A DNA stretch of 59,696 nt, counting the filler, from Porpidia crustulata (Eukaryota): NCBI GenBank assembly GCA_964255105.1. It is 5 parts of 5 records of this genome, joined end to end, with 100 filler letters (N's around TTAATTAATTAA, not from the genome) between each part and the next. Parts side by side here need not be neighbours in the genome. Positions count along the whole stretch, not along the records: positions 23,941 to 35,795 come from CAXUWE010000590.1; 4 more parts are not named here. One strand, written 5' to 3'. This document shows, piece after piece, positions 23,941-38,800 of the stretch. The position numbers were made by a program, and so were the translations under genes. Each line of letters starts with the position of its first letter. The first letter of the stretch is position 1. Under the pieces are notes generated by a model. That model was not told the DNA's origin. It did not search any database and saw only the letters and a list, made by a program, of their open reading frames with translations.

Positions 23941-23989
23941 GGGTGATGTGGATATTTGGTTATTGGGGTGAGGGGAGGGATGAGTGGTG

Positions 23990-24180
23990 ATGAGCAGAGC
24001 GGTGCGGCAGAGTGGCGGGCAGAGTGGGGGACAGAGTGGTGAACTCAATGCGTCGCTGCGTTCAGTGGGCTGTCTGTCTAGGGGACCGTCTAGTCTAGTG
24101 GGCCGTTCAGTCCAGTGCGTCGTTTAGCTCAATGTGTCGCTGCGTTCAGTGCTTTCCGTTCAATGCGTCGCTCCGTCGAG
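23990..24180. repeat. Short degenerate tandem repeats (CAGAGTGGYGGG-like, then TCAATGCGTCGCTGCGT-like)
   Basis: About 4 CAGAGTGG/CAGAGCGG units, then about 4 copies of TCA(A/G)TGYGTCG... Confidence 0.7.
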
Positions 24181-25150
24181 TTCTTCGTCGAGTTCTTCGT
24201 TGAATTCTTCATTAAGTCTCTCGTCAAGTTTCTTGTTAAGTCTTTCGTCAACTTTCTCGTCAAGTCTCTCGCCAAGTCTCTTGTCAAGTTTCTCGTCAAG
24301 TCTCTCGTCAAGTTCCTCGTTAAGTCCTTCGTCAAGTCCCTCATTCATCTCCCAATTACGCCTGCTATCAAATCTCTCACCAAACTCCTCATCGAGTCTA
24401 CTGTTAAGGTTAATGGCATTACTTATAGCAGGCTTAATGAGAAACTTGAGAGAGAACTTGATGGAGAAACTGATGGCAGGCTTGATGGGGGAATTGATGG
24501 TAGGTCTGATGGGGTGCTGGATGGTGGACTTAACGGGGGACTTGGCAGGAGGCTTGATGGGAGAACTGATGGCAGGTCTCATGGGAGGCTTCTTGGGGGA
24601 AGGGGGTTCAATGGCAGAAGGCGGCTCAATGGGGGAAGGGCACTCAATGGATGAGGGAAAGGAGGTGAATTACGAGGGGGGGCGACTGCGAGAGGAGGTA
24701 GCGAAGTGGGATGTTCACTTTGGGGCAAATGGTTTGTATAGCATCAAATTTGTACACGGCGAAGTGCATTTGTTTCGACATCGAGCTATATGTACGTGAA
24801 AGATTTGCCTTTTCTGTTTGCAAAACGACGAGATTGAGAGCGAGGAAGCTCGAGAATGTAGATATTCAGGAAGTCGTTATTTGTTGCATTCCCTAGGAAA
24901 TCCAGGCTCATGGTCTATTGGATAAGTCAACGGTGTTTCTTCCTCTACATTGTTCCGGGAGGTGTATATAGTATTTTATAGTACAAGCATATGCTAGACA
25001 GTATTTAGGACCGAGGATCTTGAGCAAATATATGGGGAGTTGCGTTCAGAAGGGCAACTTGTTGAGGAGAAAGGCGTCGGAAGGGTTGGATTGACAAATG
25101 AAAGGGCTGAAGTCTGTCCTTTGAATGTCCGGGGCGAAGCCTGCATGGAG
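24160..25150 (-). pseudogene. Possible decayed ORF ending in PIKP and LDEE/LDER tetrapeptide repeats
   Basis: The frame of ORF 24160-24582 can be read upstream for several hundred nt with scattered TAA/TAG/TGA stops. No family recognised. Confidence 0.3.
24170..24600. repeat. 12-bp minisatellite in two oppositely oriented arrays
   Basis: Left array (~24170-24400) has unit ~AAGTCTCTCGTC. Right array (~24430-24600) has unit ~GATGGGAGACTT, close to the reverse complement of the left unit (GACGAGAGACTT). Confidence 0.8.
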
Positions 25151-28100
25151 TCGTAAAGTGTATAGGGATGGTTTGAGTAAGGCAAGAAGATCCGTGTCTG
25201 AGAATACTCAGATGGGTATCTGCTCTGTGATACATATTCAACGGAGCGTCATGCGAGTGTTTGAAGACGGAAGCCTATCTCATCAGACTGCGTGTCGTGC
25301 AAGTCGCAACTAGCGTTTGATATTGGTCCGGAGCGGATCGAAGCCCGTGTTCCATCAGTGGGAGACGCTCACGCGAGGGGTTCATGCAAGATCTGGTCTC
25401 GGGGAAGTCCTGTTCTAGTTCTGGAGCTCGCTCTGTTCGAAGGTATGGGTCCGCGATGCTTTGATGGGCTTTGCCTCTGGATAAGTATTCAGCCTAGCGG
25501 TCTCGCTCATCAGCAGTGGGCGGAGGTTATCAGGGGAAAGTCGGAGGAGTGTCAGAGTCGGTATCATATCCTCTGGATCAGATCGTTAGGTACCAGCTAT
25601 AAATTGAAGGCGTTGATGTGGTCCGGAATGATCTTGTATTCGCACGTTTACGTTCCATTTGACAGAAGAGGGACATCTGGTAGCTCGTCTTCAGAGTATG
25701 GAGATGATAGCCCTGGTCGACAGGAGCTTTCGAGTGCGTCCTTTGGATTCTGAAGGCATTGGAAGCTAGTCCTAGATTATGGCCCAGAGAATGGGAGGTC
25801 AACCAGAGCTCTCTGCGGTTTGCTCTTGGGAGGGGACGGCTTTCTCGTAGAAATCATCCGACTTGTTCTGCAGCCTCTGAGTGGATGTGAGACTAAAGTG
25901 CACTTTAGGAGGAGCGTGCAATCGTTCAAGCGAGTGTACTCAGATGCCTGATAACGTTGGCTACTGATTCGATGTCAGACCAAGAGGTGGTGAGGAGGAA
26001 GCCCGCTTGAGCCCTACAAGGCAGTATTCAGGAGTTCATCCAGATCTAGCGATCCGCAGTCAATGCACGCACGCGTCTCAATTGGAATCCATCACATTGA
26101 TCTTGGGATAAGAGTGGGTCTTCTCGAGATCAGAAAGAGATGACATAACGAACATCTGGTCGTGAGCTTCAGACCTGCAGACCTTCAGACTCACACATCA
26201 CCTCTAGTGTAACAGTGAGCCATTATTGCACTCGATACGCATCTGGCCGATCACCTTGACAATCATCTAGAACTCCAGGTTCAGGATCATTCAGCAGTGA
26301 TGAGAGAACTTAGAGCAATCAAGAGATTTCTGCAATCTGCGCATATTCCGGTGCCAGGTGAAACCCTTACAGTCTACCGAAACGGCAAGGAAATCCAACC
26401 AATATTCTTCGCTTCATTCCAGCGGGGATCAAATTTTTTCACCCTAATTTCCTATGAGGGTTGGCCAACAGCCACAAAGCCTTTTGTGAATTCCACTGAG
26501 GGCCAGCGCAGAGTGCGCGGGTTCTCTATATTATTGACCAATACGAGAGAATTCCTGCTCCAGTGTGCTGCATGCGAGACCCTAGAGTCCCCTGAATTTC
26601 GTAATATCATATGCTGGATCTATCACAATTGTCCAAGGTAGGCACTCTGTGCAGGTGAGCTAATTGTTTCAAGCGCGTTGATCTAATCTTGACGATTGGT
26701 GCTTGCGGCACATGTTGGTGATGATCAGGCACTTCCATTACGAGTTTGGGAGTGTGGTCGGACACAGGATTGACCAGCAGGAGAGCGGATTTAAAATAAT
26801 AATATTATCGATCGATGATACGATAGGAAAGTTCCTTGCGTGTCGCGGATGTCGTGTCACTAGTAAAAATGGACTTCTTAGGTAGGTAGATAGGGAGCGG
26901 GAGATCACCAGGTGTCATTGGCGCGCAGGTGGTGAGAAGGAAATGACGAGGTTGGTATAAGCGTAAGTGTAAGCGGCGATCAAGTATATGAAGGAAGAAA
27001 AGCCGAGATAATTGGCCGCGAAAGGATTTTGGTCAAGGTGTAATAAGTCCTGGTTTTCTCCGGTCAATTCGCTGCCAATCATGAAGCACAGACCATAAGG
27101 TACTCCTGCATCCCGGCTCCCCCCCGCGCACCTGGGAGCAGAAAGGCTTCTCCAACCTGATTCCGTGACTATCACGACTAGGGTATGTGTCCTATCAGCT
27201 GCCCCCTTTACAAAGATGTGAGAGGTCATTTAATAAAAGGACTACGCTTTGAATTTTTAGGACTCGTATGCACGGTGGCAAGGAGGAATCCCCGCCATCC
27301 AGCTGCCTGATTCCGCAGACGGCGGAAGAATAATCTCCACAACAATGCAGGGAAGTCTCCTTTGAGATTTTGACTGCCATGAAACGCGGGAGCATACTGA
27401 TCAATGGCGGTCAATCCGGTGGCTACCATCTTCGAAAGCTGACACTGCCTAGTGCCTGTACTGCTCATATGCCTCACGGCGAAATATTGTGGTAAAATAC
27501 ACGGTATCGAGATAATAAGATACTGTACGGTATTGCAGCATCTATTCTAGGGCAACGGTGAAGCCCTTTTCTCAATCTTCTCCAGAACCCTTGGTCTGGC
27601 GATCTGTCCGAGTGTTTCCTCTGCGATGCCGTTGATGAAAGAAAGCTAATGATTCACTGTCTTGCAAGATCGCGGTAAGCCGTATTGTAAATGATATATA
27701 GCGGGCAATAGTCGGCTCGTCTACTACCTATGATGTTTGCCCAAAATTCGGACGAAGCCGGCGGCTGAGGCTGGGGAGCGAACGTGGACTTACCCGCAGA
27801 CTAGACACGCTAATCCTAAAGAGTCGAAGCCCCAGCCGATTTAACCCTATGGAGTGCAGACCATTCTCTCTTTTAACTCATCAAATTACACAACTGCATT
27901 TCTGAAATCATTCACTCACATAAATTGACTGCACTCCAAATTCTAGCACTTGTAACTGTACGACGATGTTCATTGCTCGATCTCATGTCTTAGAAATTCA
28001 ATGATGGGTTGGAGATCAGTGTCGCTTTTTTTGGCCCCCGCGCTTTGAGGTAAACCGGTCGCTAAGCTCTTTGTAGTTTGGAACCGATCTTGTCTGAAAT

Positions 28101-28234
28101 AGGGCTAGGTCAACTAGCCGTATAAGAGTTAGCTGCCGCTCCTGGGCGCGGCTATTTGGTAGCATGGAAGGTGGAAGGTACCCAAGACACTCAAGCTAGA
28201 GTAAGGTACCTACAGCAACGATGATGTCGATTCA

Positions 28235-30906
28235 TTAGAATCTGTTCATGCATTTCACACCGGCCCTAACACACTTGTAGCATGGGAGTTCAGAGGCTTT
28301 CCGAACGCATTTCGCTCTAATTTGTCGACATCTACGACACGCTTTCGGCAGCGTCGAGCTGTCAAGCTGTTGCTGGGTTAGGGCGTCATCGGCGGGGTGA
28401 AGGTAGGGTGATGGCGAGCCTTTAAGACCTACGACTTTAGTTCCTGATGCTGGTGAGAAACTCCCAAGTCTTCGGCGCACAGGCGTTTCGAGGGACACTG
28501 GCTTTGTAACTTCAATAGCTCCAGCGCAATTCAGGAAAGCTGGCTTTCTGATGGGGTCGTCACCCCATGAGACTGCATCAGGAAATTTCCCAGTGCGAGG
28601 AATGATAATCTCGTAGGTAATCCGTGGGTAATCGAAAGATATTCGGACTTCGTACTCCATTCGCAGGTAAAACTTGTTGGTTCTTTTGTTTCGGACCTTT
28701 TCAAAGGGTCCTCGATCAATGTCAGAAAGATCCATGTGGAGCTTCCCTATCACTGCTATGTCTTTCGCTCACTTCAGTACTGTCCGAGATATATGGCAGC
28801 CAACTCACCATTGCTAGGGTCATGGACTGCTAGGTGATCTCGCTTTTCCTTATGGGAACCATATAACGTCTCTTCTATCTTGATAGGTTCTTTCAGCCAG
28901 GCGCCGCGCCAACCCCGCAGAGTCCTCACGCAACCTCTTTCTATCTTTTCGTCCTGGCTCAAGTCAGTCCAATGTTGCAGCAGCAGCCTGTTCTGTGTAA
29001 GTCCAGATATACCAGTTTGAACAGCCAGTTTATACGATCCTGAACGCTTCTCACGCCATCGTGTTGATCAATTGTTGGTTTAGCGTCACCGTGTATATCT
29101 TCAATGTACTGCTCATCCCATGCTGTCCCAAAACTACGGCGAAGATATCTCTCCGTAATTGCATCTTTATGCATTGCTCTGAGAATTGCTCCATCAGATA
29201 CAATTGAAGCGCTGAAAGGACAATCATTAGTGGCCTGTCATTCCACGAAGTGGCTTCACTTACGAGTTTCCTTTCGGTGTTATGAGGTCGATCGGATAGC
29301 CCATACGAGGTGGTGTGCCCGTACCGAATACTTGATTCAACGAAAACCAAATGTGCTTATTTCCGCTCAATCCTCCCACGAAGATAATTCTCTAGAAGCG
29401 GATCAATGTGAGTATACTCCCTAGAACCAACTCAAAGTTACCTTTATTTTTTGACCAGACGTACTCGAGTATTTCTTGTTGAAGCTTCTGATTTGTTTTT
29501 CGATCATGGAGATGATTTGATCAAGGGTTTTGCGGAAAACCTCTCGAATATGAATACTGTTGATCCTCAGCATCTCTACACCAGGGTGTGACGACCTTAT
29601 ATACGTACCTGGACAACTGGACACGGTTTGAAAGGATTGCTTTCGATGGGGTTGGTATTAGACCAGGTATATGTATGCTCATGTTCTTATCTCTGGCAGC
29701 ATCTGAAAACCCGTTAAATTCCTTTTTAGCATTTTCGAAACTTGCACAAGCTATGTCCAGGATCTTGTTTGTGTGCTCTGTTGTGTTTGGCATTCCCAGA
29801 TGTTGTAGGAAGGTTGGCATCAAATCTTTGGTGTACGTGGTAAAAAATTGTCGAAAATTGTCGTTCAATAACGCAGAGCCACATAGACAGCCTGGAAATC
29901 AGATCAGCTTAACGTTCAGTCATCCGAACAGTGCCACAGACCATCGCCACGGACGCCTTCTCTCATTCTAAGTATTGAGCTATTCGTATCAACCATGTAG
30001 GTGATGAAATCCTAAGCAGCACGTATCAGTGAAAGTTGTCTATGTTTGTGCATAGCATCTCGACATACACCGGTTCCACCTCCAATGTCCGCAACTAAGA
30101 AGGGATCATAGAGCTTTCGAGATTAGTCCTAATCTCCATAATCGGATAGCTTGATCAAATCGACTCACATAGGGTTTTTTGCTTTGATTTGCCTCAATAG
30201 TATGTCGAAGTAACAACGCCTCTTCCTGTTCTTTTTCGCGAAGATAGAACGCAGCCGCAGCCTCGGATTCGGAAACAATGTCAGGGTTTGGGAGACCTGC
30301 TATCTCTGCTGCAGTCACCATTGTCTGGTTTATCTCGGGTGTCCACATAGCAGGAACGCAAAGTACGCACTGAACATCCGAAGTGCTATATATTTCCTCG
30401 CTAGCTGATGTACCGTAGGTCTTGACTATCTCGTCCTTTGCGAAACCGTAGAGGCGAGCTAAGAAAATACTTATAAGGTCCTCAATCAGAGGGGTTCTTG
30501 GCTCGTTATCTGTCCTCCAAGAGCCTGGTGGAATCCTCGAAAGTTGGGCTGTGTGCTTTGCTCGAATGTCTTCTGTTGCAGGAGATTTCTCAAGACCAAG
30601 TTTCAGCAATACAATGCGATCTTCCTCCGGAATTTCTCCGTCACTAATATGACTATCGACAGATTCACCCCACACAAAATCTTGGAACTCGGAATGCCAG
30701 GCAATCTGGGTCTTGACTTGGTTTTCCGAAAAGCCCGATTGTCCGAAACGCACGGGCTCTAGCTTAATGTCATTAAGGGCAGTCGTTGACGGCTGTTGAG
30801 AAGAACTCCATTCTTGGAGAGCAAATGAAACGGCAGCATAAGTTGTTCCATAATCGATACCGAGGATCAATTTCCTAATGATCTGTGGGTTATTTGCTTC
30901 GTCCAT
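28235..30906 (-). CDS. Non-canonical Hsp70 (HSPA12-like actin-fold ATPase) with a C-terminal Zn(II)2Cys6 cluster, ~9 exons
   Basis: Motifs LGIDYGTTYAAVS, VLCVPAMW, VSESEAAA, VADIGGGTGD, CGSALLNDNF, IIFVGGLSGN, IVSDGA and YLRMEYEVRISFD. The terminal exon continues without a stop to CRRCRQIRAKCVRKASELPCYKCVRAGVKC. The GT-AG junctions I checked are in phase. Confidence 0.88.
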
Positions 30907-31377
30907 CTTGTGCACCTTCAACGTCTTTTGGGGACCGAAAAAAAAGAAGCAAGAGAGCGTAATAGCAATTTAGATGACTATACACAGCTCCTGGCGGGAA
31001 CGGGAAGACTTAACTTCGGTGTGTCAGGTCTAGAGTTTGGACAGGGGGGAACTGGATTTTCCAGGGAAGCTAATCTCCTTGAATAAGTGTTTTTCGAGAC
31101 CCTTTCCATACTTTACAAGGGGGAGATATACCAACTAAGTTTGTAAAATACAACATACGGTTTACTAATAAATATTTCAACTACCAAGTATGCACACCCG
31201 ACCCCTCTACTCCTCAAAATATTCTAAGTCGCGTTCGCACTAATTCAAAAATAAAGACTGGGTATTCCTCAATATCTGCATCAGGTCTTGTTTCTTCTTC
31301 GATCCTCTATATTCACAAGGCGTCGCGCGATAAAGTACTACAAAGCACGACATTGGCGCTCAAGGATACGGCTCGCA

Positions 31378-33070
31378 ATGCATCTTTGGACCGATGCAAT
31401 GGTAGAGGCTGCTTTAGAATTTCTTAGACTGAACAAAGGCTCTGGCGGGCTCTTCGAAACTAACAACCGCGAAGCACTGGAACAGGCAAAGAACTTCGTG
31501 ATGCAACAATGTCCCGGAGTAAACATCACTATTTGTCAACTAAGATCCAAGTATCATGCCTTGTGGAGGACCTGGCGTAAAGAGGATCTTCCAGGTGGCG
31601 GCTCCATCTACCGGTTAGGCCCTGATGCCCTTAAGTCGATTCACAGGCGACAAACTGTATCCATCTCAGATCGCCTCAGTGGGAGGAAAGCTGCGATTTC
31701 TGCGCGGAATTGTGTCCCAATCAAACACCATCGACAATTGCGAGCGCGAGCCATCGACTACACTGAAATGTCGCCGATGACCGATGATTCTGGAAGGTAA
31801 ATTCTTTCTCCAATGCCCTAGGCTTGAGGACAGCAGTATTGATTTGGCTATTTCCAGAGATGTGGCCAAGTGTGATACATCCGATGTCCCTCAACCAAAT
31901 ACAAATAAATCTGGCATTATTGTTCTTGTTCAAGAATGTGAGACGACTAGACGGCAAGCATCCTTGAGCTCCACATATACCTCATCTTCGCCACTTACGG
32001 AAATGAGTCCGATGCAGCCCGAGATTTCCCAAGAAGGCTGTGGCAAGACTGGAGGTGGAGGCAGATTCGCAGCGGGATCTAGTAGGTCAGAATTCGATGT
32101 AATCCTGTCGTACACTAAGTTCTATGAAGGTACCCAAACTAGAAGCTGGGCAACGGTGAATGATCGTCTGTTTGGAAACTCAGAAGTGTGTTTACCAACC
32201 CGAGATGATCTGGAATACTTGCAAGGGATCACGATGAAAGAGATATTGTTCTCTGTTTACGCCCTTCTTGAGTCTACGGCCACGGCATACGAGGGGACTC
32301 AAGAGATACATACGTCAGTCGCTTGCTTGCCGTTCTTTGAAATTTGCAAAACCGTTTACGGCGTAGGCAATAAAGCCGATCTATTGATCATTTTCGGGGA
32401 TTTGCAGTTCCAAAGTCCAATTTCTTTGGGAGTTTTTCTACGTGCTCTGATCGGCGCTGCTGTATATGAATGGGTATTCGACGGCTGTCATGATTCTCCT
32501 CTGAATGACCTTGACAGTCGAACAGGGATACCAGCAAGATTCATGAGCGAGATCGAGAAGCGTGAGTGGCCTCTTACAGCTATACATATATGAACTCTGA
32601 TTCTAATACGAGCATCGAATGCAGGGCATCCCGAAGAGTATAAGGATGTACTTCGGCAAAGCAAACACGGCTTCATGAAGGAGGAGCTTGATCTTGATTT
32701 CATTGCTGGAGAGCTTGCGACCCGTCTCACGCACGCTCTAGGCCCATTCCTGAATAAACATCTTGTCAACACGACCAACCTCGAGAGTCTCAGAGCGTGG
32801 CGCAAAGACTTGCACAAGGTTTTCGTTTCTGCCATTAACCTCAAGAAGGCAGTACTGCTGAGCGATAACAAGTTCACATTTCTATGGCCTAGCGCAGGTG
32901 AATGTTCCAACCATAGGACGATGAAGACAGACAACGGGAGCTACGTTGAGCGTGACCGAAAGGTACGCATTGGATTGTTTCCAGCTTTGCTCCCGGCATG
33001 GGAACCGAGTACAACCTTAGATCGGTCCAGGGAAAGAAGTGTATTTCCAGCCATTGTCACACTGCAGTGA
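31378..33070 (+). CDS. Hypothetical protein: N-terminal Myb/SANT-like domain plus C-terminal helical/GrpE-like domain, probably 3 exons
   Basis: N-terminus WTDAMVEAALEFL...ITICQLRSKYHALWRTWRK. C-terminal part LRALIGAAVYEWVF...FLWPSAG...VRIGLFPAL...RSVFPAIVTLQ*. Intron 32562-32623 is canonical. The first junction needs a very short intron (31797-31833/31836). Confidence 0.7.
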
Positions 33071-33894
33071 TAAGGTGTCTCTACCCCTTACTAGTCTTGG
33101 CTCGCTGGTAATATAGATGAGGTAGATTTCGAGTCTCTGGCTTCTAGGATGTTTGATTTGCCGTAACGGCGGGGGCCTAGAGCTGTGTGCTGATGTTATG
33201 ATGGGTCTTACATGGGGTTCGTGCACGTCAATTAGCTGGGCTAACAAACGATACATCGGTCCAAACCCAAGAGTCGGCACCTCAGGTGCAGTACATAGGT
33301 GTCCTCAACTAAGTATCGGCAGGCCGCTGCATGAAGATCCCAGTCTAGCAGTATGAGTCAACGGGTTTATTGCTGGAATGCCGTACACCCCTTGATCCAG
33401 ACACCGGGACTTCCATCTAAATTCAGCGATCCAATCAGGGCGAGCAGGTCATTTGTCATTTGTAGGTGGTCTTCATGCACAAGCCCGCAGCAACCATCCA
33501 CGATGCTCCGTTACATTGCCCCTGTAATTTGTCGATACAGGAGTAGTTAAGCCGGACGTGGAGATCGACCGGAGGGATACGAGCTGAAAGAATGCTTCGT
33601 GTCGAGCAAGGTCTGTCGCGCACCCATGAAAATCAATGCCAAAGCGCTACCGTGAGACCCTGCTGCCCGTTAGCTTCTGGGCCGGCTGGTGCAGTGGAGG
33701 TGATTTTGGTCGGAGTCTACCGCACAACAGACAGCCTCTGATAAAAATGATCTCGGTTATGTCGAAAATGCACACTCCCAATCCTCCGTGCCGAAATTCT
33801 CGTGCTATAAAAGCTCGTTCCTCGATCCTTCTCCATTGCCATTCCATTCGATTCACTTCACGCTGCATCCAACCGAATACCCACTCCCATTACC

Positions 33895-34593
33895 ATGACA
33901 GCTAGAGATTCAAGGGAGATCATGGACCAATTTGCAGTATTCTGTCAAGCTCTTGGAAATTATGTACAAATAAGACTCGCTTCAGTAGACACAGCGGCGG
34001 TTGAGGGGTTTGATACTCTGATAGCTACCGTCATTGTAAGCGTCTCGAACTCCCACTCGTTCATCGAGCTGATTCTGTTAAATCTTTCTCAGCAAGCTCT
34101 CAATGAGTGGCTGGAAGAGAAGATCTTTCATGCGAGATCAGAGATATCAAATCAAGCGGGTCGGTCCTCGGACGACAGCTCATCCAGCAGTCACTAGGGA
34201 TACAACGCATCGAGTTGTATCTATTCCAAAAGGTATCTTTCTATCCTTTGGTGTCCGTATTCTCTCGAGACTGCTGATCACGATAGGATTAGACATTATG
34301 CCTGTACACGGCCCACAAACGCCATGAAGGCCTCCAGGCGCCTGAACGACACGCTTCCACTACCTCTTCCTCGCCGACTAAGACATTTCAGGGCGTACGC
34401 AGCGCATTCTTTTGAGAAAGATCGATTTTGCGGAGGAAGAAGGAAGGCGGTTTGGAGGAAGTGGATGAACGGCGACTGGCTTGCACGACGCTTAACAAAA
34501 GTTTTGATATATTTTGATAGAAGATGTACAATAAGTGCAATAAATCTCTTTACCAAAGAATATAAACGTGCCGCTCTCACGCGTAAAGACTGA
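33895..34593 (+). pseudogene. Three-exon hypothetical gene with one in-frame TAG (or a short two-exon gene ending at 34197)
   Basis: Introns 34036-34092 and 34233-34286 splice ORF 33895-34197 in frame to ORF 34324-34593. The only interruption is TAG at 34195-34197. Confidence 0.45.
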
Positions 34594-35795
34594 AGAACTG
34601 AAGCCTTTTCTATACTCTACGTGCTAAAGAAAGAAATGCTCCAAGGTGAGCAACGTGGCTCTTTGAGAAAGATCCGGAACCTACCAAAATGCCTGTGAGT
34701 GGTTCATCCCTCACGACGATGACTCGTACCTCATACCACTCGCCCGAAAGGAGCCCCGACACTTGGAAACCCAATCTTTGAATGGTACAAGCGAATAGGT
34801 ACTTGAACAACCTTATCATTCAAAAGTCGCCTCGAAGCTGACCAGTCACTGCCGCGAATTGGAATCACGAGAGGAAACATTGGACACGAAGACTTGAATA
34901 GCTCACCTCGTTCATTACCTCTCAACCCGCATTGCTCATAGATCAGCTTCATCAACTCCCTCTGCACCGTCTCAGAATCTCCTGGCCCAGCTTCCGGAAA
35001 GAGTCAGAATAGTATCGCCTGGTAGGTCACTGGGTCTTTGCCCTCTATCTATTACTGACGCACCTCCAACAAATGGCTCTTCACGCACGCACGTTCCAGA
35101 GCTACCTACTTCTCACGGAACAAAGATCCGCCAGGACGAGAAATGGTTCTGGAATAATAATATGACGAAGCTGCAAAGCCCAGGGTATCTGAGCTCGAGA
35201 AAGAATGCAACAGACGAACGAACGACGCGGCTGACTATTTCAATTCCAAATCGAATCGACAAAAGCGGACTGTGTTTTTCTACTTCCCAAAGAAATATCG
35301 CGTCCCGCTTTATATGCAAGTCAAAAACTTACTATATGCCATCCCTAAGACAAAGGGTAGAGTAAATTCCCATGAAACGGAAGGAAACGCTGATGTTGGA
35401 CCTCCGTCTTGACAGTTGGCGGCTGGTGGTTTCGACCTGGAGGATGGTTGTTCCGATCCGGAGCGCGCGAAGATCAGAAGCCCACCACTCCCTCCTGTTG
35501 GCATACCAGGTATGAATTTGATGGCATTGATGTTGTTGTTGTTGTTGCTGGGAGGAGGGCTATCTCGGAGGTGAAAAGGAGAAAGGAAACTTTCTTCTAG
35601 CGTCTCCAGCCCCATGTGGCGGAGATTGCCAATAAACCCCCCCCCCTGAATTCCAACACCTCCCCTTGACTATATGAATGGACGAATGACATCTAAACAA
35701 ATATGAAATCGTAAAATCGAGTCTGTATATTATTAAATATAAGTGTTGAGATATATGATGGGCTGACTTAGGGTGAAAAGGGTTGTGGATTGAGT

Positions 35796-35895
35796 NNNNN
35801 NNNNNNNNNNNNNNNNNNNNNNNNNNNNNNNNNNNNNNNTTAATTAATTAANNNNNNNNNNNNNNNNNNNNNNNNNNNNNNNNNNNNNNNNNNNN
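35796..35895. other. Artificial contig linker
   Basis: N44-TTAATTAATTAA-N44. Confidence 0.99.
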
Positions 35896-38800
35896 TCCTC
35901 AATCTTTCGCATCAGCCTCAACCTCTCGCCCTGCTTGTCCGCACTGTCTGCACTGCTCCCACCACTGACGCCACTCACGCCGCTCGTACCGCTGACACCG
36001 CTGCCAACATCATCTTCGCCAAATAACGCCTTCTCCGCCTCTATGTTGGCGTTCTCGAGCCGGGCAGCTGCTAGCGTGTCGGCGATGAGGGTTTCGTATT
36101 TCGCATCCGCGGCTATGTGGCCGCCTGCCGCGAAGTCGCGGTAGGCTTTGGTTTCGGGGGCATCGATGAGGCGGAAGTCGAGATCGTTGAGGCTACTTCT
36201 ATTATCACGAGGCGCCTTGGCTGGTACCTCTTTTGTCTTGGGCAAGTTTCGGTTCATTGGCGAGCCATTACGAGGTGTGCCTCTACCACGGGAAGGAGGT
36301 TGCTGAAACCTGCCAGTGCCGTTCGCAGATCCACTGCCGTTCGCAGGAGGCTCTTTAGCTGGATCAGTAGGGTCTTTGCCTGTAGTGCAGATACAGCGGC
36401 AAGATGCCATATTGCAGGTTTCAAGGCAAGCATGGCCGCATGGAAGGGATCTTTGGCAAGGCTTTCGGCAGATAATGGTGCTGTGATCGAAAGGATGGCA
36501 ATTCAACATACAGCTGTGGCCGCATGGAAGTTTTTCGGCACAGGGCACTTTGCAGCCGCCGACGAGATCTGAGAAAGATTCCGCACAGGTGGCTTCGACT
36601 ACTCGCGAGTGCTTCTCACAGGTAAGAGGAAGGACGTTGCCCACTCGACAAGGATCTTTGCTCATGATTTTGAGAACATCTGACCACAACTTGTTCCTGC
36701 GTAGGAGTTGTTCGTCGCCGAATATATAGAATCCACGCTGAGCCCGAGACAACGCGACGCAGACTCGGTTCTCGACCGCCAGAAAACCGATGCTATTTTT
36801 GCTCCGCACGAGTGAGAGTAATACAACTTCATTCTCTTCACCTTGATAGGAATCCACTGTCACGATTTTGAAAACACAACCTTGCAGATTAGAATGTCTT
36901 CGCAATTCTTTTAATATCAATTTTCTTTGCCCGTTGTAAAAAGTCAGAACAGTGATATTCTTCACATTCATTCCGTTGTACACGAGATAATTGAAGAAAG
37001 CAACAATCATATCCGCCTCCTGCTGATTGACCTTTGACATAAGCTGATCACTATTTTCTTCCCAGCGGTGATTAAAGAAGTAGCTATTGGCACCGCCCAT
37101 GCCAGGGATAGGGCGTTTCTCCAAAACAGAGGGATGGTCTTCCAAGTTCTGATAGATTGGTGCCAACAGCCTCCTTATCTCAGGGACCATACGGCGCTGC
37201 CGGCTTAATCGAGAAAATTCAACCTGGTTCTTGACCAAGCGCTCGAACATTGAAACGTCGAGATAGAAGGGTGGCCCTTCCAGTTCTTGCATAGAACAAT
37301 GGCCTCGAAGCTGCTGATGGTCGCCTACTAGAATGAGATGCTCTAGTGAATCAAAACAAGCAGCGGTGATGTTAGCCTCGAGTGTTTCGGCAGCTTCCTC
37401 GATAAGCACAACTTTCGGCTTCAGACCTTGAACAAGACCGCGGTATTTGCTGAGACCCGTGGTTGTCATGCCGATGATCCGAGCTTGTTTCAAATAATTC
37501 AAATCGACCTCCCATCGACCGATCTTTGATTGCACTACGAGGTCCGCGTACTGCTTTGCCAAGTCACGGAAGGATTTGCGGATGATGTCTTTCGCCTTTT
37601 GCTGCATATATCGATAGACTGGTCCTCGATATGCCTCTTCGATCTCCCATAGATCCTGCTTCTGCAAATGCTTCCAAACATTTTCCTCTTTAACATCCCC
37701 AGAATCAGCAGTGAAAGGTTCAGAGAAGAACATACGTGGGCCTCTTAAGGTGTCGAAATCCTCCTCGTCATCGATTTTTGTTTCTGCCTCTACTTCTTTC
37801 AACTGCTCAAACTCGAGGTCCACCTCTTCAAAATCCAAACCCATTTGCTCTGGCATTATATTTCGTTTTGCCACGATTAATTCTTTTCCAAGCCACACTG
37901 CCATATCTCCCGGTACTTGCAAAGCATCAGCCTTGAACCACTCCGCCGCGCCTCTAATCAGAGACTCATATTGAGTCTCTGTGATAATGCCAAGATCATT
38001 GAAGAACTTAGCCCCCAGTGGCTCCGAACCCTCAGTCAATGGTTTCAAAAGCTCTAGCATCTCCTTGTGTAATTGGGCCATCTTCTTGGCAGCCTTTATT
38101 CTGTATCCTCCCGGAATTGAGGCAGGGGGACCTCCGCCCTTGATCGCAAATAGCGTCCGCGGCTTAATGATTTGCATGTCGGAAGTCCTTCCTCCGAGGC
38201 GTATGAACTTTGGCTCAAATTGCGCAACATGGCGTAGCAGCTGGTCAAGGGCATGATTGGTATGACAAGCTATAATAACAGGTGCGCTCCCATAGCGCAT
38301 ATTTTGAATGAGAAGCCGTAGAGCAACAACAGATACATGTGTTTTGCCCGTACCCGGAGGACCATGAATAACGGCCAGGCGCTTCGATAAGATCCGAATT
38401 AATGCAGCCAATTGAGATGGATCAAGTTCTGATGCAGCGTCTTCCGGCCAATCTTTGATGATGTTGACGCTAAGGAAATCATCGGCATTTGACTGGAAAG
38501 CCAATGAGATATTCTGCATCGGCTGTTCAACAAGATATTGTGGCGGCTCGACGTCCTTCTGTAATTCGACAATGTGCTCAGAAAGGGGGAACCTGAGCAA
38601 TTTAGTCAAAATTCTTTGGAGTAACCGCGTTGTTTGCATACTTTTCGCGCGCAATCTTCTGCAGACTCCGAAGTGTGTGACGATATGCTTCATAGTATCC
38701 ATTTCGCGCTTCGACCATCACCCACTCTTGTTGAGGATCAATCTCAATTTCATGCGGCCCACCAAAGTATATGTCGATCTCAGGTGGATTCTGCTGCACT

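Follow-up and report, generated by a model that had tools for sequence, protein, structure and literature searches.

Head-to-head genes for a divergent Hsp70-type ATPase and a candidate GrpE-like partner, each with a DNA-binding-type module, in Porpidia crustulata

Could an atypical eukaryotic Hsp70 have an exchange factor of its own, encoded next to it, and could the two proteins work together on DNA? This question is raised by two neighbouring genes in a stretch of 59,696 nucleotides (filler included) from Porpidia crustulata, made of joined parts of assembly GCA_964255105.1 and called the window below. Gene A (28235..30906, minus strand) codes for a divergent Hsp70-type ATPase with a C-terminal Zn2Cys6 cluster, and gene B (31378..33070, plus strand) for a protein that appears to begin with a Myb/SANT-like domain and to end in a GrpE-like one. 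GrpE is the nucleotide-exchange factor of DnaK/Hsp70, and GrpE-type factors of eukaryotes are known from organelles only, with no cytosolic or nuclear representatives known. The best-supported reading, to which we give a probability of about 0.45, is that in this filamentous ascomycete the pair constitutes a conserved module, a DNA-tethered Hsp70-type ATPase with a dedicated GrpE-type exchange factor. Searches of the literature turned up neither a fungal Hsp70-like/GrpE-like pair nor an Hsp70-Zn2Cys6 fusion nor any exchange factor of an HSPA12-type protein; the initial annotation of the locus knew of no described system with this architecture. Positions are those of the joined stretch, in which 23,941-35,795 come from record CAXUWE010000590.1.

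The gene pair and gene A

Both genes are real, spliced and divergent, which confirms what was first observed; the ATGs at 30906 (minus strand) and 31378 (plus strand) and the 471-bp gap between them (30907..31377) had been given exactly. The spacer is presumably a bidirectional promoter. Gene A has nine exons (30906-30169, 30113-30069, 30011-29942, 29891-29609, 29556-29442, 29391-29264, 29211-29013, 28953-28809 and 28755-28235, minus strand) coding for 747 amino acids (aa), with eight introns, all GT-AG and 50-59 nt long, and its stop codon at 28235-28237. Gene B has three exons (31378-31796, 31858-32561 and 32625-33070, plus strand) coding for 522 aa, with two introns of 61 and 63 nt and its stop codon at 33068-33070. 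The splice models were built from GT-AG sites, open frames and homologues alone, and no further in-frame ATG lies upstream of either start inside its open frame. Gene A aligns end to end with P0001 (707 aa), the only longer homologue from a word-indexed protein search, with 318 of 682 aligned columns identical (47%). The DNA of the window is of fungal type, with about 48% G+C and short GT-AG introns.

The same arrangement recurs in a metagenome contig, L113. A contig scan with gene A exon 7 and P0001 as queries gave four confirmed loci, among which L113 (7,346 bp) is the sole close relative; it carries orthologues of gene A and gene B on opposite strands, head-to-head across about 523 bp, and has the same layout of gene B in three open reading frames (ORFs). 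Identity to L113 is 59% for exon 1, 70% for exon 7 and 54% for the last exon of gene A, and 36-46% for gene B. The other three loci (L114-L116) were left out of the synteny count, being short distant matches that lack the gene B domain; L115 looks bacterial. The divergent pairing, which had been put forward as a feature to be sought in other genomes, is therefore kept in the one informative context of one. This is suggestive, and leaves functional linkage and ordinary synteny unseparated.

At the DNA level the window and L113 are about 64% identical, within the two genes only; outside them neither the spacer nor the flanks (1.3 and 1.1 kb) can be aligned, and the two spacers (30907-31377 and L113 3113-3635) share no word of 10 or more bases. 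The window spacer contains no CGG-N(0-14)-CCG site and so gives no hint of autoregulation by the zinc cluster. Some DNA transposons typically encode Myb/SANT-like trihelix proteins as accessory factors, and homology that ends at the two genes, with unmatched flanks, would fit a pair derived from a mobile element and moving, or once moved, as a unit. Such an origin seems highly improbable, however, as no transposase, integrase or terminal repeat was seen, Pfam giving no such match in the flanking ORFs, and the flanks in L113 are too short for judging synteny.

The nucleotide-binding (actin-like ATPase) part of gene A is encoded by exons 1-7 (29013..30906, minus strand). The spliced translation contains GIDYGTTYA, ADIGGGTGD and FVGGLSGN, which correspond to phosphate-1, phosphate-2 and adenosine-type motifs, and exon 1 matches Pfam HSP70 (PF00012) over profile positions 131-187 with 21.1 bits, marginally above the cut-off of 20.6. 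The motifs and the Pfam match uphold the Hsp70-type call of the initial annotation, and the assignment of gene A as a divergent Hsp70-type ATPase is firm. Its ATP-binding motifs are intact, and the enzyme therefore looks active. Pfam coverage ceases after the ATPase part. In P0001, the DxGGGT and VGG motifs align, weakly, with a solved Hsp70 (E 0.18), and the full-length protein has no Pfam match at E≤1. Gene A may be HSPA12-like, as the initial annotation labels it.

The last exon of gene A continues in frame into a complete Zn2Cys6 binuclear-cluster motif, CX2CX6CX8CX2CX6C (28250..28339, minus strand), which ends five codons short of the stop. Searched as CX2CX6CX5-12CX2CX6-8C, the pattern has a single match in all six frames of the window (28339-28250) and none in 200 shuffles; Pfam Zn_clus (PF00172) gives it 19.6 bits (E 1e-3), 1.4 bits under the cut-off of 21. 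Between the cluster and the C-terminal core of gene A lies a poorly conserved linker of 55 residues (28340..28504, minus strand). Identity to L113 amounts to 20 of 30 residues in the cluster, 14 of 55 in the linker and 57 of 83 in the preceding core, and L113 keeps the same pattern with all six cysteines and the Pro preceding Cys4. The better conservation of the cluster than of the linker argues for selection on the zinc cluster as part of gene A. The cluster call is firm, and gene A ends as the initial annotation had described it.

A foreign origin of the cluster, either as a captured or decaying fragment or as exon 1 of a transcription-factor gene lying downstream, would be consistent with its place at the very end of the protein, where the linker or dimerisation region that usually follows is missing, with the Zn_clus score under the Pfam cut-off and with its absence from P0001. 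The cluster nevertheless shares its exon and reading frame with the end of gene A in both genomes, and it is better conserved than the linker that precedes it. The stretch from Cys6 to the stop contains no GT donor, and the 13 minus-strand ORFs downstream of gene A (26455-28195) have no Pfam match at E≤0.1, for which reasons the cluster is read as the end of gene A and not as the start of another gene. The chance that it is foreign to gene A is put at very little.

P0001 has a Lys/Arg-rich low-complexity tail (residues ~655-707) in the place of the zinc cluster. This tail could be an alternative route to the nucleus or to nucleic acid.

Gene B and its terminal domains

Judged from its sequence, gene B belongs to a fungal family that has no name. 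In an exhaustive HMMER search, exon 3 matches 56 representative proteins at E≤1e-3, and 11 also at E≤1e-10; the representatives are clusters at 50% identity, one being the window's own ORF and most being exon-sized fragments, and the architecture of the family was read from its eleven longest members. Both members that are named at their source are hypothetical proteins from lichen-fungus genome bins. Several relatives share one plan, in which a conserved N-terminus is followed by a long linker of low complexity, and a helical middle leads to the exon 3 domain. Among the seven members of at least 380 aa, the N-terminal region is full in four (P0015, P0021, P0047 and P0055), partial in P0036 and absent from P0048 and P0031. 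The initial annotation had presented gene B as a fusion; its front-plus-tail layout is the norm of the family and not special to this locus.

No exon of gene B has a Pfam match at E≤1. Exon 2 (31859..32560, plus strand) codes for a Ser/Thr-rich, disordered linker and then a helical middle region, conserved in L113 (35% over 238 aa) and in the long family members; compared with longer proteins it has no match. A protein search with the family alignment returned two of its own members only. P0048 (519 aa) keeps the middle and C-terminal domains, and a Lys/Arg-rich N-terminus replaces the trihelix domain there, which suggests that the front end is exchangeable in this family.

The C-terminal domain of gene B (32627..33067, plus strand), encoded in exon 3, is predicted to consist of four helices followed by a beta part of five short strands (AlphaFold2 model from a 56-row alignment; predicted local distance difference test, pLDDT, 89.6). 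When this model was compared with 350,542 chains of the PDB by Foldseek, ranks 1-5 were all GrpE: 9a81_A (E 0.038), 1dkg_A (0.13), 4ani_A (0.17), 3a6m_A (0.18) and 9blt_B (0.31), with template-modelling (TM) scores of about 0.3. With VIA (48,161 representatives), unrelated helical hairpins lead, at Z 6.0-6.7 and over residues 1-81 only, and are read as a common arrangement. GrpEL1 follows (9bls_B; Z 5.5, root-mean-square deviation (rmsd) 7.2 A, 93 aligned residues, residues 26-147), and a second look gives 9bls_B at 5.5, 9blt_C at 5.3 and 3a6m_A at 4.5 over residues 21/26-147. Among the VIA rows listed, the GrpE chains alone cover both the helical and the beta parts.

Profile comparisons were made with alignments of GrpE sequences gathered from genomes, at first 30 and later 47. 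By hhalign, the gene B family scores 21.4 (P 0.0062) against the 30 sequences, a score reached by none of 100 column shuffles, and 24.4 (P 0.0017, probability 15%) against the 47, with none of 150 column shuffles as high. A shuffle of 10-column blocks, in which the real score was reached in 10 of 100, was rejected as a null, as the motif stays intact in it. The alignment pairs 'F.WP.aGe.FD...M' of the gene B family with 'I.p.G..FDP..H' of GrpE, and at relaxed thresholds it is collinear through to the C-terminal 'FPA.V' / 'RPA.V'.

The sequence support for membership in GrpE is thin. GrpE-like descent is nevertheless favoured, because GrpE was named beforehand, then topped an open structure search, because the neighbouring gene is of Hsp70 type, and because the motif falls at the equivalent place. 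The C-terminal domain of gene B is, on these grounds, probably though by no means safely GrpE-like by fold and descent. The GrpE-like tail of the initial annotation thus survives as the top structural match, and weakly so.

The N-terminal domain (31378..31650, plus strand) is predicted as a Myb/SANT-like trihelix domain with three main helices at residues 6-18, 30-44 and 52-66 (AlphaFold2 model from a seven-row alignment; pLDDT 85.7). The region is conserved in L113, P0047, P0055, P0015 and P0021. Ranks 1-2 by Foldseek are the DNA-binding domain of Arabidopsis GT-1 (prob 0.96/0.75, TM 0.61/0.56, E 0.3-0.6). In VIA, Zeste is first (Z 7.2, rmsd 2.4 A, 67 aligned residues) and GT-1 next (Z 7.1), values that should be read with the caveat that Z below 8 can reflect a common arrangement; Sap1, Reb1 and RAD follow, and these later rows are mostly Myb, SANT or homeodomain proteins. 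The Myb/SANT-like models of Pfam do not match exon 1 (E≤1), and the best family score is that of P0047 with Myb_DNA-bind_5 (E 0.22). The scores are middling and the list of matches is coherent; a Myb/SANT-like fold of the N-terminus is probable. At the level of the fold, the GT-1 and Zeste matches agree with the Myb/SANT-like start that had been claimed for gene B.

Readings of the pair

From fold and adjacency we infer an ATPase/exchange-factor switch. In such a switch, the GrpE-like domain of gene B would dock on the nucleotide-binding domain of gene A and speed the release of ADP, like GrpE on DnaK. The Zn2Cys6 and Myb/SANT-like modules would bring the two proteins to DNA or chromatin, where the ATPase cycle may act on DNA-bound clients, for example transcription or chromatin complexes. 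Co-expression of the two genes from the shared spacer would be expected. A more ambitious form of this proposal, which we consider rather doubtful, sees in gene B the first GrpE-type exchange factor dedicated to an atypical (HSPA12-like) Hsp70 of eukaryotes, and has the ATPase cycling solely where both proteins sit on DNA and remodelling transcription or chromatin complexes there.

Several results count against an ATPase with its own exchange factor on DNA, and most of them concern GrpE. Every GrpE score is weak. In Foldseek, no match of the exon 3 model reaches E≤0.001, and the low TM scores are accompanied by rmsd values of 10-12 A; in VIA, the GrpE chains at Z 4.5-5.5 have values that VIA describes as common among helical models. 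The hhalign probability is 6-15% and rests on a single short motif, and global mode gives no alignment between gene B and GrpE. Sequence-to-profile searches fail: Pfam GrpE (PF01025) has no match at E≤1 in exon 3 and 11 family members, the PDB sequences matched by the family profile at E≤10 include no GrpE, and a hidden Markov model of the 47 GrpE sequences places the gene B ORF outside the best 15 of 1,752 ORFs. On the side of gene A, the Pfam scores for HSP70 and Zn_clus are both borderline, and P0001 lacks the zinc cluster. No J-domain protein is found near the pair in Pfam scans of the window and the flanking ORFs. The pairing, finally, has a single further instance, and simple synteny could account for both loci.

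Much of this would be expected if the genes were real neighbours and gene B a DNA-binding protein of Myb-like type whose C-terminal domain, specific to fungi, has a function other than nucleotide exchange. The likeness to GrpE would then reflect a shared simple arrangement of a helical hairpin and a small beta part, and the two genes would share only a promoter or synteny; the lone other context, L113, does come from a related genome. It is harder to reconcile with this explanation that GrpE, proposed ahead of all searches, took the first five ranks among the 350,542 chains, beside an Hsp70-type gene, and that the GrpE motif matches at a topologically equivalent place. We regard this alternative as rather unlikely.

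The surroundings of the pair bear on another explanation. On each side, about 2.5 kb (25754-28234 and 33071-35843) contain short ORFs only, with no Pfam match, and in particular the flanking ORFs have no J-domain, transcription-factor or transposase match in Pfam. A 957-aa open frame at 35844-38717 (minus strand) encodes a superfamily 1 (SF1; Upf1-like) helicase with AAA_11 and AAA_12; it is convergent to gene B at a distance of 2.8 kb, measured along the joined stretch, in which adjoining parts need not be genome neighbours. The remainder of the window is crowded with housekeeping genes, the wider window including those for NOP9, a Git3-type receptor, Pex2/12, a UCH hydrolase, SPT8 and a SacI-domain protein.

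The initial annotation had offered, as an alternative, that the DNA-binding-type domains are integrated decoys or sensors in a defence system, and the pair would then be a conflict or non-self-recognition module with an Hsp70/GrpE-type regulator like the prokaryotic ones. HSP70 together with GrpE is described as a theme of prokaryotic GTPase-centred conflict systems by Kaur et al. (2020; PMC7159879). The diversity of the gene B family (56 clusters at 50% identity), the helicase gene and the lack of recognisable genes in the flanks would also agree with such a module. Against it stand the housekeeping character of the wider neighbourhood (NOP9, Pex2/12, SPT8, SacI), an unremarkable base composition and an identical architecture in both orthologue pairs, and neither the two genes nor their surroundings show an effector, NLR or repeat-sensor domain by Pfam. 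The decoy proposal thus gained no supporting evidence, and a conflict module appears improbable.

If the GrpE-like domain is real, gene B would provide a concrete and testable cofactor for a divergent Hsp70. HspA12 function is called unknown in a 2026 review (PMC13580251), where atypical Hsp70s of this kind are without known function or cofactors. A real GrpE-like domain would also suggest a job of this Hsp70 on DNA-bound complexes, each protein having its own DNA-binding-type module, and through it the gene B family, nameless and at least 56 sequence clusters in size, would gain a fold and a likely role. Should the likeness to GrpE fail, a conserved Hsp70-Zn2Cys6 fusion beside a Myb-like protein remains, which is still an unusual architecture.

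Comparison with known systems

The modules of the pair can be compared with several known groups of proteins. Gene A resembles the HSPA12-type Hsp70s of eukaryotes in being a divergent Hsp70-type ATPase that, judged by Pfam coverage, apparently has no canonical substrate-binding lid. For HSPA12-type proteins, the literature searches gave neither an exchange factor nor a DNA-binding fusion. With the fungal Zn2Cys6 transcription factors of Gal4 type, gene A shares the complete six-cysteine pattern and the Pro before Cys4; unlike in these factors, a solitary cluster sits at the C-terminal end of an ATPase, and the middle-homology domain of fungal transcription factors has no Pfam match in gene A or in the downstream ORFs. 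The trihelix proteins GT-1 and Zeste are the best fold match to the N-terminus of gene B, a domain which, unlike theirs, escapes all Myb models of Pfam.

The pairs of GrpE and Hsp70 are a close parallel to the locus as a whole. In both cases the gene of an Hsp70-type ATPase adjoins that of a protein with helices followed by a small C-terminal beta domain, a predicted one in gene B, and in the hhalign pairing gene B and GrpE have in common 'G..FD...[HM]' where the beta part begins and, at relaxed thresholds, 'PA.V' where it ends. The Porpidia pair differs in being eukaryotic, spliced and divergent and in forming no operon, and it has no J-protein nearby. Gene B goes unseen by Pfam GrpE and adds a Myb/SANT-like domain and a long middle region, and gene A ends in a Zn2Cys6 cluster.

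Divergent GrpE paralogues of bacteria offer a further comparison. In both bacterial loci examined (L134, 3329-5979; L135, 3442-5879), a second GrpE gene lies directly upstream of a gene for a second full Hsp70, in L135 preceded by an 840-aa TPR protein. These pairs pass the Pfam cut-offs widely (64-66 bits for GrpE and 465 bits for HSP70), stand in operons with the TPR protein or other genes, and have no Zn2Cys6 or Myb-like domains. They share with gene A and the putatively GrpE-type gene B the placing of a dedicated, divergent partner beside its own Hsp70 paralogue, and their GrpE carries, like gene B, a Met in the motif ('LDP..M'). Together with the theme of the conflict systems, the second pairs of bacteria fit the principle that a divergent GrpE is encoded beside its own Hsp70.

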